Shown in pieces: positions 5,996 through 49,956 of a stretch of 64,000 bases of DNA. Where the stretch lies: NCBI GenBank assembly GCA_964194555.1, contig CAXMMT010000007.1, positions 1,117-65,116 on the forward strand. The letters run 5' to 3'. The position numbers were made by a program, and so were the translations under genes. The notes under the pieces are model-generated. The model was not told the DNA's origin and searched no databases. It saw only the letters and a program-made list of their open reading frames with translations. Numbering within the stretch: the first letter of the stretch is position 1; every line of letters starts with the position of its first letter. The stretch comes from an uncultured Boseongicola sp. (lineage in GTDB: Bacteria; Actinomycetota; Acidimicrobiia; Spongiisociales; ZC4RG35).

Positions 5996-6277
5996 GGAAC
6001 CGAGTCTATTCCCGACGGTAACGTTCTAGTTGCGGAGCGCCCGCCAGACGCCAATCAACCCAAGCAGCAGCGTCACACCGATCTTGGTGAAAGGCTTGAT
6101 GGTTGACGGTAGGTCGCTCCGAGAACGAACCATCGGGTTGATACCAGTAACGCGAGTTCTCTACTGACGAGTTTCACCGAGTGCCCGGCGGATTCGATCG
6201 TGCCTTCCGAAACCTGACTCCGGCGAACGCTGATCATCGTGTCGATCCGACGCGTGCCGGGCGGGATCGTCGCGTTG

Positions 6278-7036
6278 TCAGCAGCATGGCCGGCAGAGCT
6301 CGCATGCTCGAAACCCTGCGCTCTCTGCCTGGTCGAGTGAGCGAAAGTCGACCACGTTCTCTGTCTTGGAACGTCTGATGGCGTGACAAGTCGGGTGGCA
6401 GTAGATCTTCGTTGAAGTGTTTCCCTGAAGACGAACATGCTTTGAGGCGAGGTCTTCCAGCCAATCGGGATGCGCGCCCTCATACTCGAGCAGATCGTGC
6501 TTGTTGTCGGGCCCGCCAAGGGAGTAGTTGCCGATATGCCCATCGGCCCGGACCACTCTGTGGCAGGGAATGATCAGCGGGATCGGGTTCCGGGCGACGG
6601 CTGACCCAGCTGCCCGTATTGCTCCAGGCCGGTTCACTTCATGGGCGAGCCAGGCGTAGGGACGCACTTCGCCTTTCGGAATCGTGGCGGTCCGCGTCAG
6701 AACCTCCGCCTGGAACGACGTGACCGAGCGAAGATCGATGGGCAACCTCCCCGGTGTTCCCGCCTCGATCGCTGCGGGAATGTGCCGGCTCCATGCTGAC
6801 GGGGCCTCGGCGCGGATCAGCCTGCGGCCAAACCTGTCGGCGAACCTGTCTTCAAATGCCTGATCTGCGATGTCGACCGATGAAACACCCCCAGGATTGA
6901 AGGTGACGGCGACATCTCCGATGGCGGACTCGTAAAGGTCATATCCGTCGGCAAGGCCGGTGCCGAGGGCGACCCCTTCGGTCACCCCATCGGGCAGAAT
7001 GCCGACCAGGTTCCCAAGTTGGCTTTCGATGCTCAC
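6278..7036 (-). CDS. Methylated-DNA--protein-cysteine methyltransferase (Ogt/AGT) with a C-terminal Ada-type Zn-binding domain
   Basis: AGT active site IPCHRVVRADGHIGNYSLGG. The C-terminus IYCHPTCHAIRRSKTENVVDFRSLDQAESAGFRACELCRP matches the Ada N-terminal Cys4 Zn module. GTG at 7036 overlaps the sigma-factor TGA as GTGA. The longer tracked ORF (to 7330) would overlap the sigma gene. Confidence 0.85.
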   Translation of the reverse strand: MSIESQLGNLVGILPDGVTEGVALGTGLADGYDLYESAIGDVAVTFNPGGVSSVDIADQAFEDRFADRFGRRLIRAEAPSAWSRHIPAAIEAGTPGRLPIDLRSVTSFQAEVLTRTATIPKGEVRPYAWLAHEVNRPGAIRAAGSAVARNPIPLIIPCHRVVRADGHIGNYSLGGPDNKHDLLEYEGAHPDWLEDLASKHVRLQGNTSTKIYCHPTCHAIRRSKTENVVDFRSLDQAESAGFRACELCRPCC

Positions 7037-7548
7037 TGTTCCTCCTCGATTGTCTGCTTGAGCCGGGCCAGGCCCCGGTGAATATCTGCTTTGACCGTGC
7101 CTTCGGGTCGGCCGGTTGATTCGGAGATGTCGCTGATTCCCATTCCGACGACATGGCGGAGTACGACAGCCGTCTTCTGATGACCGTTGAGATGGCTGAG
7201 CCGGCGCTCCCATGCCTGTCCGTCGGGGAGTTCGGGGTCTGATTGACCTGTCTCGATCATCCCGACATAAGTGGGTCGTCTCGATCTGTCTCTCAGGTGG
7301 TTCCGTCCCAGGTTGAGGGCGATTGTCCACACCCAGGGCTGGAGATTGATCCCCCTGATCCGAGCCGTGTCATAGCCGGAGAGTGCCTGGTAGGCCCTTA
7401 TGAATGTCTCCTGGGTCAAGTCCTCCGCCTCCTGGTGGTTTCCGGAGAGACGGCGAAGACCCCAATAGATCCTCTTTCCCATCTCATCGACCACCCTCGG
7501 GAACGCCCCGTCCAGATCGGTGGCAAGGGCGGGTCCAATCTCGTTCAT
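7033..7548 (-). CDS. ECF-type sigma-70 family RNA polymerase sigma factor
   Basis: 171 aa. Region 2 is EAEDLTQETFIRAYQAL...WVWTIALNLGRNHLR. Region 4 HTH is KTAVVLRHVVGMGISDISESTGRPEGTVKADIHRGLARLK. Confidence 0.9.
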   Translation of the reverse strand: MNEIGPALATDLDGAFPRVVDEMGKRIYWGLRRLSGNHQEAEDLTQETFIRAYQALSGYDTARIRGINLQPWVWTIALNLGRNHLRDRSRRPTYVGMIETGQSDPELPDGQAWERRLSHLNGHQKTAVVLRHVVGMGISDISESTGRPEGTVKADIHRGLARLKQTIEEEQ

Positions 7549-44357: not shown

Positions 44358-44401
44358 AATGACGTGCCGCGTGGGTCCCCCGCTACGGGTACGAACAGTC
44401 A

Positions 44402-44414
44402 CGCATAATGCCGG
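44402..44414. repeat. Island repeat core, copy a (CGCATAATGCCGG on + strand)
   Basis: It lies in the gap between the DUF2293 and SnoaL-like genes. The flank CTAGATGTGCGGCC resembles the flanks of copies c/d read on the other strand. Confidence 0.6.
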
Positions 44415-45761: not shown

Positions 45762-45791
45762 ACCCGCAAATCGCAGGCATTATGTGCGGGT
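45762..45791. repeat. Island repeat core, copy b
   Basis: ACCCGCA-aatcgcaGGCATTATG-TGCGGGT. The core is embedded in a 7-bp inverted repeat, about 80 nt upstream of the sigma fragment. Confidence 0.55.
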
Positions 45792-46170: not shown

Positions 46171-46235
46171 CCCGACCCGCCCATAGCAACCGGCATTATG
46201 AATCGATCCGTGATCACGCATAAGTGCTGCCGTTA
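46171..46235. repeat. Island repeat, copy c (extended ~60-nt form)
   Basis: CCCGACCCGCCCATAGCAACCGGCATTATGAATCGATCCGTGATCACGCATAAGTGCTGC aligns along its length with copy d. Confidence 0.65.
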
Positions 46236-46706: not shown

Positions 46707-46958
46707 TCAGGAACGCTCTTTGGCGATGTTGACATTGAGGCTGCGGCCTTCAAAGTCAGATCCGTTGAGCGCACTGATCGCATTCTGGGCGCTGTCGGCC
46801 GATCCCATTTCGACGAAACCGAAACCGCGGGAGCGGCCGGTGTCGCGATCGGAAATCACCTGAGCTTTGGTGACGGGACCGTGCTCGGCGAACAAGCGCT
46901 CAAGATCGGACGAATCGGTAGAAAACGCGAGATTCCCCACGTAGATATTTGTGGACAT
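46707..46958 (-). CDS. RRM (RNP-1/RNP-2) RNA-binding protein
   Basis: MSTNIYVGNLAFSTDSSDLERLFAEHGPVTKAQVISDRDTGRSRGFGFVEMGS.... RNP-2 is IYVGNL and RNP-1 is RGFGFVEM. ATG at 46958 has an AAAGGAG RBS. The tracked extension to 47225 is rejected. Confidence 0.9.
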   Translation of the reverse strand: MSTNIYVGNLAFSTDSSDLERLFAEHGPVTKAQVISDRDTGRSRGFGFVEMGSADSAQNAISALNGSDFEGRSLNVNIAKERS

Positions 46959-47245
46959 TGCATGCTCCTTTGAGCTGAACCGTCTACTTGTTGGCACCTG
47001 ACAGGCCGAGCAACTCAGATCCCGGTCAGATCGACCGAGAAACGGGAGCACCCTGCTGCGACACCGACGGAACGACAGAAGCAGAGAAAGGCGAAGCACG
47101 TGAACCGTGCAATAAGCACACCCTAACCAATCACCCCCACTAACCACGCCAGCTCGCTGTGGAACAACGATCCACCTTCGAACCACGAGGCGAAGGGGTC
47201 CTTCAAAGGATTCGACCAGCCGCACAAAGTGTAGAAAGTCCTACA

Positions 47246-47302
47246 GGCCCCGCCTATAGCCGGCAATATGTATCCCTCGGTGGACACGCATAAGTGCGGC
47301 GG
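47246..47302. repeat. Island repeat, copy d (extended ~60-nt form)
   Basis: GGCCCCGCCTATAGCCGGCAATATGTATCCCTCGGTGGACACGCATAAGTGCGGCGG, about 290 nt upstream of the RRM gene. Confidence 0.65.
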
Positions 47303-47523
47303 TTTCAAGGGGTCATTGCAACGCTTTCGCATTTGTCACGTTTGGCAACGCCGAAGCCTCCTTGTCTGCTCCTACCTCCATCGGAGAGTCAGAGGGTCTA
47401 AGAGTGTTCCTTGATGCTCCGGGACAGTGGGGACTCGTCTGCTTCGACCTTTCGGGAGGTGAGCACGACGGAGCCGGACTCGACTACGTGACAATGTTCA
47501 CCGTCAACGAATAGCCAATAGGT

Positions 47524-47660
47524 AGCGCATAACCGGCATTATGCGTTCCTCGTAGTGCCTGGTCACGGGCTGCTTCTCACTCGGCTGACAGGGTATCTGA
47601 CACTGAAATGAGAGGGTACGAAAAGTAAAAGGTGGCCCTGACGACGTGATCCCGATCACA
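47524..47660. repeat. Island repeat copy e (core, in the palindrome CGCATAA-ccggca-TTATGCG) plus ~100-nt element R1
   Basis: The core lies at 47532-47542. R1 (47557-47660) reads CCTGGTCACGGGCTGCTTCTCACTCGGCTGACAGGGTATCTGACACTGAAATGAGAGGGTACGAAAAGTAAAAGGTGGCCCTGACGACGTGATCCCGATCAC. Confidence 0.7.
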
Positions 47661-47824
47661 GCGGTGTCGATCTCCGGAGCCGGTCGCGTGGCGCCTGGTC
47701 TAGCGCATGTTTCTTTCGTTGGTTGATCTTGAAGCCTTGCCGGGCTTCTGGGAGGAATACGCTGTGGTTGTGGATGCTGGGTGGATGACCACGATGGCAT
47801 CGTGCGCTCGCCCGGTCGACGAGG

Positions 47825-49237
47825 ATGGAGCTTGTGATGGTTGGCCGTCGGATTGTTATGACGTTGGCGTTTTATCCACGAGGTGGATCGGCGCAGGTGG
47901 TGCGCTATTTGGGCGGAACGCTTGAGAAGTTGGGGCACGCGGTGACGGTGTGTTGTGGGTCGCTGGGGCCGTCGGGATCTTCCTCTCATGCGGCGACGTT
48001 CTTCGCGGGCCTTGACGTGCAGGCGCTTGACTTCTCCGAAGCAGCGACATGGTTCGAACAGGGACAGGATCCGATGGCTGCGCCGGTGCCCTTCCCCCCG
48101 TCGTTTGAGGATCGACCCGACGTGCCCGACCGGGTGTTCGTCTCGTTGGACGACGACGCTTACCACCGTCAGGTAGCAATGTGGCAGTCGCTGCTCGAAC
48201 GGGTCGGGCTACCGGATCTGTATCACATACACCATCTGACCCAGGTCAACGATGCGGTGGCGGCTGTCGGGGATCGACCCACTGTTGTTCACCTGCATGG
48301 CACCGAGCTGAAAATGCTGGCCAAGATTCATCTCGGCGGTGGGGAGCCATGGAAGCATGCGACCGAGTGGGTTCAGCGTCTGGTGAGGGTTGGCCGTCGG
48401 GCCGATCGTCTCGTGGTCATTTCACCAACAGATCGTCAGCTGGCAATCGACCTGTTGGGAGTGGCCCCTTCGCTCATCGAAGTCGTACCGAACGGGGTTG
48501 ACCTCACCAGGTTCGCACCCCTCCGCTTGCCAGGGAGTGAACGGTTGGTCCGCTGGCGTCAGTGGCTGGTGGACAAGCCACAAGGCTGGGATGAGAGCGG
48601 CCAGCCGGGAACGATCCGCTACTCGGACAACGACATCGACCGTTTCTTTTTGGACCCGGCGTCAGGAGAGCTGCTCCCAGTGCTGCTGTTCGTCGGCCGC
48701 TTCTTGGACTTCAAACGGGTCCCGCTTCTCGTCCGTGCCTACGCCGCGGCCCGTGAGGCGCTGGGACAGTTCGCACCGCCGTTGGTGATCTGGGGTGGTT
48801 ATCCCGGCGAGTGGGAAGGCGAACATCCCCACACGGTGGCGACCACGTTGGGGGGCGACGGGGTCTTCTTCGTCGGCTGGCGGGGCCATGAGGATCTCAC
48901 CGCGGGGTTGAACTGTGCTGACGTGTTCGTGGCACCCTCGGTCGATGAGCCCTTCGGCCAGGTCTATCTGGAGGCCATGGCCTGCGGCCTCCCAGTAATC
49001 GCCACCGATTCGGGCGGTCCCCAATCGTTCGTCAACACCGATCAGGCTCGGCCCAACGGCTGGCGGGTCACACCCGACAACGAGACAGAACTCACAGACG
49101 CCATAATCGAGGCGACCTCCGACAAGGCCACCCGACGTCAACGAGGGCGCAACGCCCGACGGCTGATCGAACGCCAATACGACTGGCGTCGCATCGCCGA
49201 GCACATCGACCGAATCTACAACGATCTACTCGCCTAG
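47825..49237 (+). CDS. GT4-family (GT-B fold) glycosyltransferase
   Basis: 470 aa. N-terminus IVMTLAFYPRGGSAQVVRYLGGTLEKLGHAVTV. The EX7E block is EPFGQVYLEAMACGLPVIATDSGG. The exact start is uncertain between 47825 and 47861. Confidence 0.85.
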   Translation: MELVMVGRRIVMTLAFYPRGGSAQVVRYLGGTLEKLGHAVTVCCGSLGPSGSSSHAATFFAGLDVQALDFSEAATWFEQGQDPMAAPVPFPPSFEDRPDVPDRVFVSLDDDAYHRQVAMWQSLLERVGLPDLYHIHHLTQVNDAVAAVGDRPTVVHLHGTELKMLAKIHLGGGEPWKHATEWVQRLVRVGRRADRLVVISPTDRQLAIDLLGVAPSLIEVVPNGVDLTRFAPLRLPGSERLVRWRQWLVDKPQGWDESGQPGTIRYSDNDIDRFFLDPASGELLPVLLFVGRFLDFKRVPLLVRAYAAAREALGQFAPPLVIWGGYPGEWEGEHPHTVATTLGGDGVFFVGWRGHEDLTAGLNCADVFVAPSVDEPFGQVYLEAMACGLPVIATDSGGPQSFVNTDQARPNGWRVTPDNETELTDAIIEATSDKATRRQRGRNARRLIERQYDWRRIAEHIDRIYNDLLA

Positions 49238-49263
49238 CGAGCAAAGGTCCCCGTCGCTGTTTA

Positions 49264-49297
49264 TTCCGGTTCTAGAACGCCGGTTCTAGAACCGGAA
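49264..49297. terminator. 15-bp perfect hairpin after the glycosyltransferase gene
   Basis: TTCCGGTTCTAGAAC-gccg-GTTCTAGAACCGGAA, starting 27 nt after the stop. It contains two GGTTCTAGAACC palindromes, so an operator role cannot be excluded. Confidence 0.55.
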
Positions 49298-49317
49298 CAC
49301 GCTCGCTTGAAGAGGCT

Positions 49318-49404
49318 ACTGACACTCGGCTGACAGGGTGGTTGACATCGGAGTTGAAGGGTCGGAAAGTGATGGCTCGCTCTGACGACGTGGGCTCCGA
49401 TCAG
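49318..49404. repeat. ~100-nt island element, copy R2
   Basis: ...CTCGGCTGACAGGGTGGTTGACATCGGAGTTGAAGGGTCGGAAAGTGATGGCTCGCTCTGACGACGTGGGCTCCGATCAG. It contains the complementary pair ATCGGAG / CTCCGAT. Confidence 0.7.
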
Positions 49405-49424
49405 TCGATCGCGCGTCCATCACA

Positions 49425-49526
49425 CCTGGTTACGTGCTGCTTGTCATCCGGTGACAGGGTGGTTGACACTGAGATCGGAGGGATGCGAAAAGTGACGAGC
49501 GGCACTAGCGACGGGAACCCGATCAC
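49425..49526. repeat. ~100-nt island element, copy R3
   Basis: CCTGGTTACGTGCTGCTTGTCATCCGGTGACAGGGTGGTTGACACTGAGATCGGAGGGATGCGAAAAGTGACGAGCGGCACTAGCGACGGGAACCCGATCAC. Confidence 0.7.
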
Positions 49527-49598
49527 GGGCGCCGGTTTCGTGAGCCGTGGGGTCACGTCCATGGACGCTATGTGTTGCAATAACCACCTGACCTCGCA

Positions 49599-49609
49599 GG
49601 CATTATGCG
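49599..49609. repeat. Island repeat core, copy f (GGCATTATGCG)
   Basis: The context TCGCAGGCATTATGCGTGG is nearly identical to copy b (TCGCAGGCATTATGTGCGG). Confidence 0.55.
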
Positions 49610-49956
49610 TGGTTTGTGGCTCTTCCTTCCCGGGTTGTCGCCGAGATCAAACTCGGATCAAACGCGACCCCATGGAGCGTATAGAGCCTTTCGAGTCTGA
49701 AACGGATATCGGGCCGGCTTGGTAAATCCTGGGAAGTGTCGAGATCCCCGACGTGCTTTGTGGAGATACGATAATGAAATCGAAACCCCACCGAATAAAC
49801 GTTGGGCAGTCCATGTGAGACTGGCATGCGGGAGACATCGAAGCGTGGCCCCGAACCGGTGTGATTTCGGGGAAACGGTTGCGACACTTTCGACGAGGAT
49901 TGTCGTCTCGTTATCGAGGTGCCATGTGGAACGGTTTCGCTAAGTCGAGCGAGATC

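Follow-up and report, generated by a model that had tools for sequence, protein, structure and literature searches.

A polar, multi-copy intergenic repeat family of Acidimicrobiia with an embedded cpaF fragment, and its possible part as a recombination module around a glycosyltransferase gene

What is an element of about 100 nt doing in three copies around a single glycosyltransferase (GT) gene? The question is raised by a 64,000-nt stretch of DNA from an uncultured Boseongicola sp. of the Acidimicrobiia lineage (contig CAXMMT010000007.1 of assembly GCA_964194555.1, positions 1,117 to 65,116, here called the window), in which one copy, R1, lies upstream of a GT4 gene and two more, R2 and R3, lie behind it. 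An earlier reading of the letters alone, the original prediction, offered three roles, namely a cis-regulatory RNA leader, a small RNA gene family, or recombination scars left by cassette insertion. The element is a polar multi-copy intergenic repeat family of Acidimicrobiia (17 of the 18 loci of a genome scan), previously undescribed, and it is conserved as sequence and not as a fold. Among the three roles the cassette and recombination reading fits best, and R1 to R3 are taken here as polar recombination-junction DNA modules, like phage attachment (att) sites, which border small gene cassettes. That reading is given a probability of roughly 0.4, a figure kept there because no recombinase is tied to the element and no crossover point is defined; it explains the data best because the element is polar, holds a piece of a target gene, separates unrelated genes, coincides with gene-order breaks and an insertion or deletion, and travels with a gene or alone.

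How large is the family, and what do its members have in common? When one genome per species was scanned with an exact pattern, 18 loci came up, 17 of them in metagenome-assembled genomes (MAGs) of Acidimicrobiia/Acidimicrobiaceae and one in a MAG binned as Chloroflexota, a looser pattern run over metagenomes added 97 further loci, and a profile search over all loci (numbered L001 onwards) gave 151 copies, 143 of them unique, with a maximum of four per locus. At least eight copies sit on four contigs of one MAG (L001, L005, L008 and L011), and many lie 100-250 nt from a contig end, as is expected of them because the element is a repeat. Plasmid, phage and viral-contig collections held no copy, and an origin from any of these was rejected on that ground. 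The core sequence strings were not found in any paper of the library searched, nor was a description of such an element in Acidimicrobiia found in the literature. Within the window a profile built from 22 copies, R1, R2 and R3 themselves included, recovered these three and no others (E 7e-15 to 8e-20), and TGACAGGGTNNNTGACA occurs there three times against 0.5 expected, a count reached in none of 100 shuffles.

The core of the element is nearly invariant over some 150 copies, CTGACAGGGTGG / TTGACACTGAAA / TTGGAGGGGTRC / GAAAAGT, and we read it as three phased 11-12-bp direct repeats, yTGACAGGGKnn. Within a module a variable 5' arm is followed by the three repeats, an A-tract CGAAAAG and about 30 bp derived from cpaF; in some members the second unit is TTGACAGGGTTA or the third is TGACAGGGGTA, and some have a fourth. 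Companion modules occur on either side. In at least 12 copies outside the window the profile start is preceded, at a distance of 26-31 nt, by the S motif, CCGGCATTMTGCGC, whose hairpin, as judged by eye, keeps the loop CCGGCA constant while the stem varies (CATAA/TTATG, CTAG/CTAG, CAGAA/TTCTG). Y repeats, which are direct repeats of TGTTTGTTCCGGAC in two to three copies with a period of about 15 nt, lie upstream of many other copies and make up a second repeat module (for example at L012:6780-6830, L023:2200-2260, L001:4470-4490 and L015:6620-6645). In subfamily B, to which R1 and R3 belong, a conserved tail leads to a module X, GTTGCAATGACCCCTTGAGCCGGCAGGCATTATGCAC, 34-39 nt on. The element lacks inverted ends, and the R1 unit shows no target-site duplication about it; in its many dispersed intergenic copies the family is as miniature inverted-repeat transposable elements and repetitive extragenic palindromic (REP) sequences are. 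In one copy (L011:6084-6138 and 6210-7475) an insertion sequence breaks the element off after profile position 56; this insertion sequence has a transposase of the rve / Mu-transposase-C type and its own repeated CTGACCCCTT end motifs.

The 3' part of the element is a piece of a gene. In several copies it reads in one frame as ...LTGWLTLKLEGCEKSKVALAMRPDLIVVGEVRGAEAFELTRAVNAGCG, and at L089 the ATG opens an open reading frame (ORF) of 156 aa which is the C-terminal third of the tad-pilus ATPase CpaF, the Pfam T2SSE match beginning at VALAMRPD. More than 1800 database proteins match the L089 ORF and the best 120 of them are almost all 150-270 aa long, and therefore truncated cpaF is widespread in the clade. 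The 761-kb contig L122 has, in this order, an element, an SRPBCC gene, a second element, the C-terminal part of cpaF, tadB, tadC, flp and tadE, and L121 shares the same junction of element and truncated cpaF; the intact locus L123 (cpaB, cpaE, cpaF, tadB, tadC) has no element. Homology between truncated and intact loci starts 15 nt before the ATG of MRPD, within the element, where native cpaF reads GTCAAGGTGGTCTTGGCCATGCGGCC and the element ...CGAAAAAGCAAAGGTGGTCTTGGCTATGCGACC, and AAAGGTGG stands 7-8 nt before the ATG of the truncated gene. The element thereby marks the place of the cpaF truncation, and, as at a lambda-type attachment site, a segment of it, the 3' part, is shared with a chromosomal target, here cpaF. 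The family consensus GTCAAAGGTGGCACTGGCGAYG, common to R1, R2 and R3, thus represents the codons (L)VKVVLAM(RPD) in decayed form. Four copies still read MRPDLIVVGEVRG; of 58 anchored copies, four keep a longer cpaF remnant and 19 keep the ATG. As for the gene itself, very many Acidimicrobiia contigs have at the head of the tad operon a truncated CpaF, about 155 aa long and with MRPD as its start (L121:289-771, L122:5001-5468, L089:260-730). It is kept at 62-88% identity (protein clusters P0121-P0240), which suggests a short but functional protein and not a pseudogene in decay.

The polarity of the family is strict. All 31 adjacent copy pairs within loci are co-oriented and none are opposed, at spacings of 111-3934 nt; eight pairs are tandem (111-123 nt) and 19 lie 1-4 kb apart with intervening genes, some of these on the opposite strand, and the co-orientation of the copies holds even across such genes. 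The genes between and beside copies are mutually unrelated, with 52 Pfam families among 56 downstream proteins, including adenylate cyclase-STAND, Usp, SnoaL, SRPBCC, DUF498, a hydrolase-cyclase fusion, CobQ, alcohol dehydrogenase, PLP decarboxylase, Rce1-like proteases, GT4 and others. By rough gene calls the next gene is on the strand of the element 63 times and on the opposite strand 36 times (64% co-oriented), at -28 to 874 nt. In 34 of 54 loci the strand of the element has a positive GC skew, a hint of a link to replication direction that is too weak to be decisive.

A link to tRNA genes or genomic islands was also considered and rejected, only two tRNA genes being present in 580 kb. The tRNA-like fragments beside some copies belong to one particular locus; at L018 and L001 such fragments lie on the reverse strand directly 3' of the element. 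A conserved non-coding segment of about 190 nt (L018:290-478, L002:1200-1390, L015:6360-6560, and L117 on the minus strand) has at its end a structure that resembles tRNA-Met but lacks a D arm (Rfam tRNA 32.5 bits, no call by ARAGORN), and homology between loci stops exactly at the 3' end of this structure. A fluoride riboswitch (Rfam RF01734, 41.5 bits) at L012:4453-4520 is unrelated to the element.

How are these modules laid out around the GT4 gene? The features of the window are as follows.

47287-47322: inverted copy of X, upstream of R1.
47528-47548, + strand: S motif, a short hairpin GCGCATAA-CCGGCA-TTATGCG that accompanies the element as a conserved module on its 5' side ("core motif e" of the original prediction).
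47557-47660, + strand: R1, 68 bits, subfamily B; variable 5' arm 47557-47584, repeat units 47585-47596, 47597-47608 and 47609-47619, then CGAAAAG and the cpaF-derived segment 47629-47659 (+ strand), placed by the subfamily B alignment and the cpaF junction.
47661-47773, + strand: tail of R1, ending in a degenerate X/S motif at about 47718-47760, GTTGGTTGATCTTGAAGCCTTGCCGGGCTTCTGGGAGG.
47837-49237, + strand: ORF of the GT4 glycosyltransferase (start at 47825 or 47837), the putative cargo between the repeats; its homologues have Pfam Glycos_transf_1 and Glyco_transf_4.
49264-49297, + strand: perfect 15-bp palindrome TTCCGGTTCTAGAAC/GTTCTAGAACCGGAA, the Y-type arm (TGTTTRTTCCGG) of the R2 unit.
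About 49300-49404, + strand: R2, 52 bits; repeat units 49330-49341, 49342-49353 and 49354-49365, cpaF-derived segment at about 49374-49403.
49405-49424, + strand: linker between R2 and R3, which looks like an S motif remnant; other tandem pairs have the same type of linker.
49425-49526, + strand: R3, 65 bits, subfamily B; repeat units 49451-49462, 49463-49474 and 49475-49486, cpaF-derived segment 49497-49526.
49574-49611, + strand: X module GTTGCAATAACCACCTGACCTCGCAGGCATTATGCGTG, which holds "core motif f" of the original prediction.

What had been read here from the letters alone survives measurement throughout, with one qualification, on the terminator. The three copies are of one element, all on the + strand around the GT4 gene, and lie where they had been placed, only the start of R2 being extended from 49318 to about 49300; the conserved blocks that had been listed are recovered in the three-copy alignment, at a mean column identity of 75%. 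The distance from R1 to the GT4 start, given before as about 165 nt, measures 165-177 nt for the ATG at 47825 or 47837, R2 and R3 are in tandem at 121 nt start to start, and the unit is indeed flanked by core motifs e and f, GCATTATGCG being located at 47536 and 49600. Indels between R1, R2 and R3 disrupt all frames on both strands, so that the element is not coding, as had been said, and a coding sequence was rejected. Only part of the claim of a terminator hairpin behind the GT gene holds, in that the palindrome at 49264-49297 is present and perfect but has no T run and was not called by a terminator scan; it is perfect only through an 11-nt duplication (GCCGGTTCTAG) missing in two close relatives (L119:1470-1500, L120:3395-3425). 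The S motif, R1 and its tail form a unit of about 245 bp, the tail resembling the subfamily B consensus tail plus X. Behind R3 the distance from the element to X is 49 nt, as against 34-39 nt in about 20 copies elsewhere.

The wider surroundings are also divided by S motifs. Copies of the CCGGCATTATGYR hairpin at 44401-44414(-), 45774-45787(+), 46190-46234(+), 47260-47304(+), 47533-47546(+) and 49597-49610(+) split the region from 44.4 to 49.7 kb into units of 0.3-2 kb with small genes, for SnoaL, GT4, an RRM RNA-binding protein and several unknown products, and give it the look of a cassette array. The element follows only one of these S motifs, and the rest stand without it. The gene for the RRM-type protein (46707-46961, minus strand) has an upstream region of about 330 nt (46962-47322) which starts at the inverted X module.

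What happens to the copies between close relatives? L119 and L120 are about 90% identical in DNA to the window over the GT gene, which in both is still followed by the Y-type arm, R2, the linker and R3. The genes that follow R3 differ among L119, L120 and the window; GT, R2 and R3 move as a single block into different neighbourhoods. In L119, as in the window, the R2-R3 pair faces a convergent gene. Among the three genomes the identity is 0.82-0.83 at GT third codon positions, 0.96-0.99 in the R2 core, 1.00 in the 20-nt linker, 0.76-0.85 in the R3 core and below 0.55 after R3, and R3 in L119 and L120 keeps the family-invariant positions despite its lower identity. R1 is missing from L120, where homology to the window begins at 47774, just past the degenerate X/S motif, and because of this starting point the unit of S motif, R1 and tail is one that the window has and L120 lacks. 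The L119 contig begins too late to show R1 present or absent, and the absence rests on L120.

The same behaviour at gene-order breaks is seen over the family. Comparison of 85 units with both flanks gave seven flank-homologous pairs sharing both sides, six sharing the upstream side only (four of them independent) and three the downstream side only; with both kinds of one-sided sharing seen, either side is therefore exchangeable at the element. Where copies have like cores and unlike tails, similarity ends within a window of about 14 nt in the cpaF-derived part. The copies thus coincide with breaks in gene order and with one insertion or deletion between close relatives. The idea of recombination scars is supported by the co-orientation, the gene-order breaks, the presence and absence of the R1 unit and the GT-R2-R3 block; it falls short in that the copies are more than inert scars, because the core is near-invariant in about 150 copies and R2 is conserved far above the synonymous sites of the GT gene.

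Could the element instead act as a folded RNA? At the gathering score Rfam had no match in the window or in 18 related loci, in line with the earlier remark that the element is not recognisable as a riboswitch or known actinobacterial small RNA, and at E <= 10 the stretch 47200-49900 gave two chance matches only, both outside the repeats. Among single copies the folding z was -3.8 for R3 (a 106-nt stretch), -0.8 for R1 and -0.2 for R2, and over 59 members compared with shuffled sequences the mean z was +0.10 on the + strand and +0.48 on the - strand, which is no stability signal. RNAalifold found no covarying pairs in three, 22 or 114 copies, and in subfamily B invariant pairs only. A long stem enclosing R3 has two systematic mismatches in the subfamily and one-sided changes only. 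In an alignment-free duplex test, where a copy's own 3' arm should bind better than the arms of other copies if the two are paired, this stem gave -29.5 kcal/mol for cognate against -28.5 kcal/mol for non-cognate arms (median rank 39.5 of 104); the arm and fold tests, which served for a palindrome too, used RNA energy parameters. The helix proposed from ATCGGAG/CTCCGAT in R2 and GATCGG/CCGATC in R3 is real as complementary sequence, but as an enclosing helix it finds no support in covariation, duplex or shift tests: the duplex energies are -10.42 against -10.47 kcal/mol, the family alignment has it 54% paired, equal to the same partner shifted by one base, and of the compensatory changes looked for in homologues none were found. 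The top pairs by mutual information in the core track subfamilies and are not Watson-Crick. A structured RNA was rejected because the pairing, stability and Rfam tests were all negative, and with it goes the structured small-RNA family of the original prediction.

The att-like reading is best judged against systems already known. Like attL and attR of the lambda type, the element combines three phased repeats with a segment, some 30 bp away, whose sequence is that of a chromosomal target gene, cpaF; its co-oriented copies flank variable inserted DNA, and its arrays resemble tandem accretion. The three repeats would then bind a recombinase or an accessory protein, as arm-type sites do in phage attachment, the crossover core would be the part derived from cpaF, and serial insertion would build (module - cargo)n arrays, those of the window perhaps including the 245-bp R1-only unit and the GT4-R2-R3 block. 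Unlike lambda-type sites, there is no integrase gene consistently adjacent to the element, the element-bordered units can be as short as 245 bp or consist of one gene, copies are scattered over many loci other than cpaF, and the upstream half of cpaF was not found at the other end of the array.

The comparison with integron attC arrays is similarly divided. Co-oriented repeated sites stand between unrelated, mostly small accessory genes, a gene and its 3' site move together (GT-R2-R3), as in integron cassettes, and some units are gene-free. In contrast to attC the element is no imperfect palindrome, has no folding signal and no evident RYYYAAC/GTTRRRY boxes, its cargo genes are not all co-oriented, and no IntI was found in a tyrosine recombinase search of 124 sources, mostly short contigs. 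Complete integrons have been reported absent from Actinobacteria (Cury et al. 2016, PMC4889954), and because of this, and of the lack of a palindrome, the element is not an integron attC. A more specific proposal, doubtful at present, is that Acidimicrobiia possess a gene-cassette system of their own, independent of integrons, with non-palindromic polar sites made of arm-type repeats and a crossover core from truncated cpaF, at which single genes or gene-free units would be inserted, stacked and exchanged, R1 and GT4-R2-R3 being such cassettes.

Mosaic interspersed intergenic repeats such as BIME/REP, pneumococcal BOX, ERIC and mycobacterial MIRU form a further class. With these the element shares that it is multi-copy, lineage-specific and intergenic, with tandem units and assembly breaks, and that it is modular, the S hairpin, Y repeats, element and X combining variously. 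It differs from them in its strict co-orientation per locus, its embedded gene fragment and its non-palindromic direct-repeat core, and no transposase of the RAYT type was seen with it, though no search aimed at one was made.

What weighs against recombination modules is in the first place the enzyme. A jackhmmer search queried with an approximate sequence of E. coli XerD found tyrosine recombinases in four fetched loci out of the 124 sources; at L023 and L049 these are XerC-like, 65% identical to each other, and point away from the element at 1.3-2.2 kb, which makes them a lead and not an association. The same search found no tyrosine recombinase in the 64-kb window, and a resolvase query gave no match; no recombinase is present among the Pfam-annotated genes of L121 and L122 (10 kb in L122), recombinases and transposases are not enriched among 98 neighbouring ORFs (25 most frequent families), and no integrase lies between copies in multi-copy loci. 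In the second place stand features of the element itself. It is not palindromic, and hence no attC; similarity ends are spread over about 14 nt and do not fall on one point; and for recombination sites a tandem arrangement in pairs, with the linker conserved, would be unusual. Further, the conservation of R2 could equally mean a regulatory or RNA function useful to the host, the 63 to 36 split in orientation of the downstream gene also fits a promoter-like role, and homologous recombination between dispersed repeats could yield the same gene-order breaks with no need of a site-specific system of its own.

The rival that survives these data best, itself unlikely, is a reused promoter or operator module, that is, the 5' regulatory region of the short-cpaF tad operon copied with the first cpaF codons in front of accessory genes, the three repeats of which would be sites for a DNA-binding regulator, for example of the OmpR/PhoB type. 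Promoter reuse is a described phenomenon (PMC3575422), and as in the reported cases near-identical upstream regions stand before unrelated genes, both within and between genomes. The element does lie directly upstream of truncated cpaF, with AAAGGTGG at 7-8 nt before the ATG, and the excess of same-strand downstream genes and the purifying selection on R2 are as this rival would have them. Unlike reused promoters, a third of the copies are directed away from the next gene or are convergent with it (36 units facing an opposite-strand gene), copies stay co-oriented across opposite-strand genes, and the R2-R3 pair is tied to the upstream GT while its downstream neighbour changes, converging in the window and L119. 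Upstream-only sharing of flanks is moreover as common as downstream-only sharing. No promoter consensus is recognised, a sigma-70 scan, with other promoter types outside its coverage, having found no + strand promoter in the element; its single promoter-like site is on the - strand, spanning the S motif and the start of R1.

Two further rivals are quite improbable, and to much the same degree. By the first, the element acts as RNA through conserved single-stranded sequence, be it a small-RNA family, an RNA derived from the 3' untranslated region with a G-rich seed (GGAGGGG), or repeated protein-binding motifs. A core invariant over about 150 copies, tandem copies recalling multi-copy small-RNA loci, a + strand folding slightly better than the - strand, the few putative-stem changes being transitions tolerable by G-U pairing on the + strand, and the position of R2 within the conserved 3' flank of the GT gene can all be brought forward for it. 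No covariation, stability signal or terminator goes with these, though, and a decayed gene fragment as the 3' third is unusual for a small RNA.

By the second, the copies are passive, functionless segmental duplicates of the cpaF-junction region which feed general recombination, and the gene fragment inside the element, the copies often at contig ends, similarity ends that are not a single point and the lack of a dedicated recombinase among the 98 neighbouring ORFs and in the jackhmmer search of the fetched loci are what such repeats would give. The conservation is hard to reconcile with this, since neutral duplicates would decay and not be polar, whereas co-orientation extends to 31 of 31 pairs, the 50-nt core hardly varies between lineages that have no more than 60-90% identity in their GT proteins, and R2 is 96-99% identical against 82-83% at synonymous sites.

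Hardly credible is the structured, riboswitch-like leader of the GT gene in the original prediction, for which R1 lies 165-177 nt upstream on the same strand and R3 alone folds with z = -3.8, but against which stand the missing Rfam match, the family mean z of +0.10, the absence of covariation, unrelated downstream genes across the family, the absence of R1 from the closest relative with sequence there (L120), and three loci from two GT homologues at 84-86% identity which have different neighbourhoods and no element, on which a GT-specific leader was rejected.

Whichever reading of R1 to R3 is taken, the element family accounts for many of the places where Acidimicrobiia assemblies break into contigs, draws attention to a tad-pilus ATPase gene that is widespread in truncated form, and is a caution against annotating these repeats as RNA genes or short ORFs. 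If the copies are recombination sites, they would show accessory-gene shuffling in a poorly studied, mostly uncultured actinobacterial class, and a new route of gene exchange in a phylum from which complete integrons have been reported absent (PMC4889954); the family would then also be a clear example of sites that arose from a piece of a gene, cpaF.

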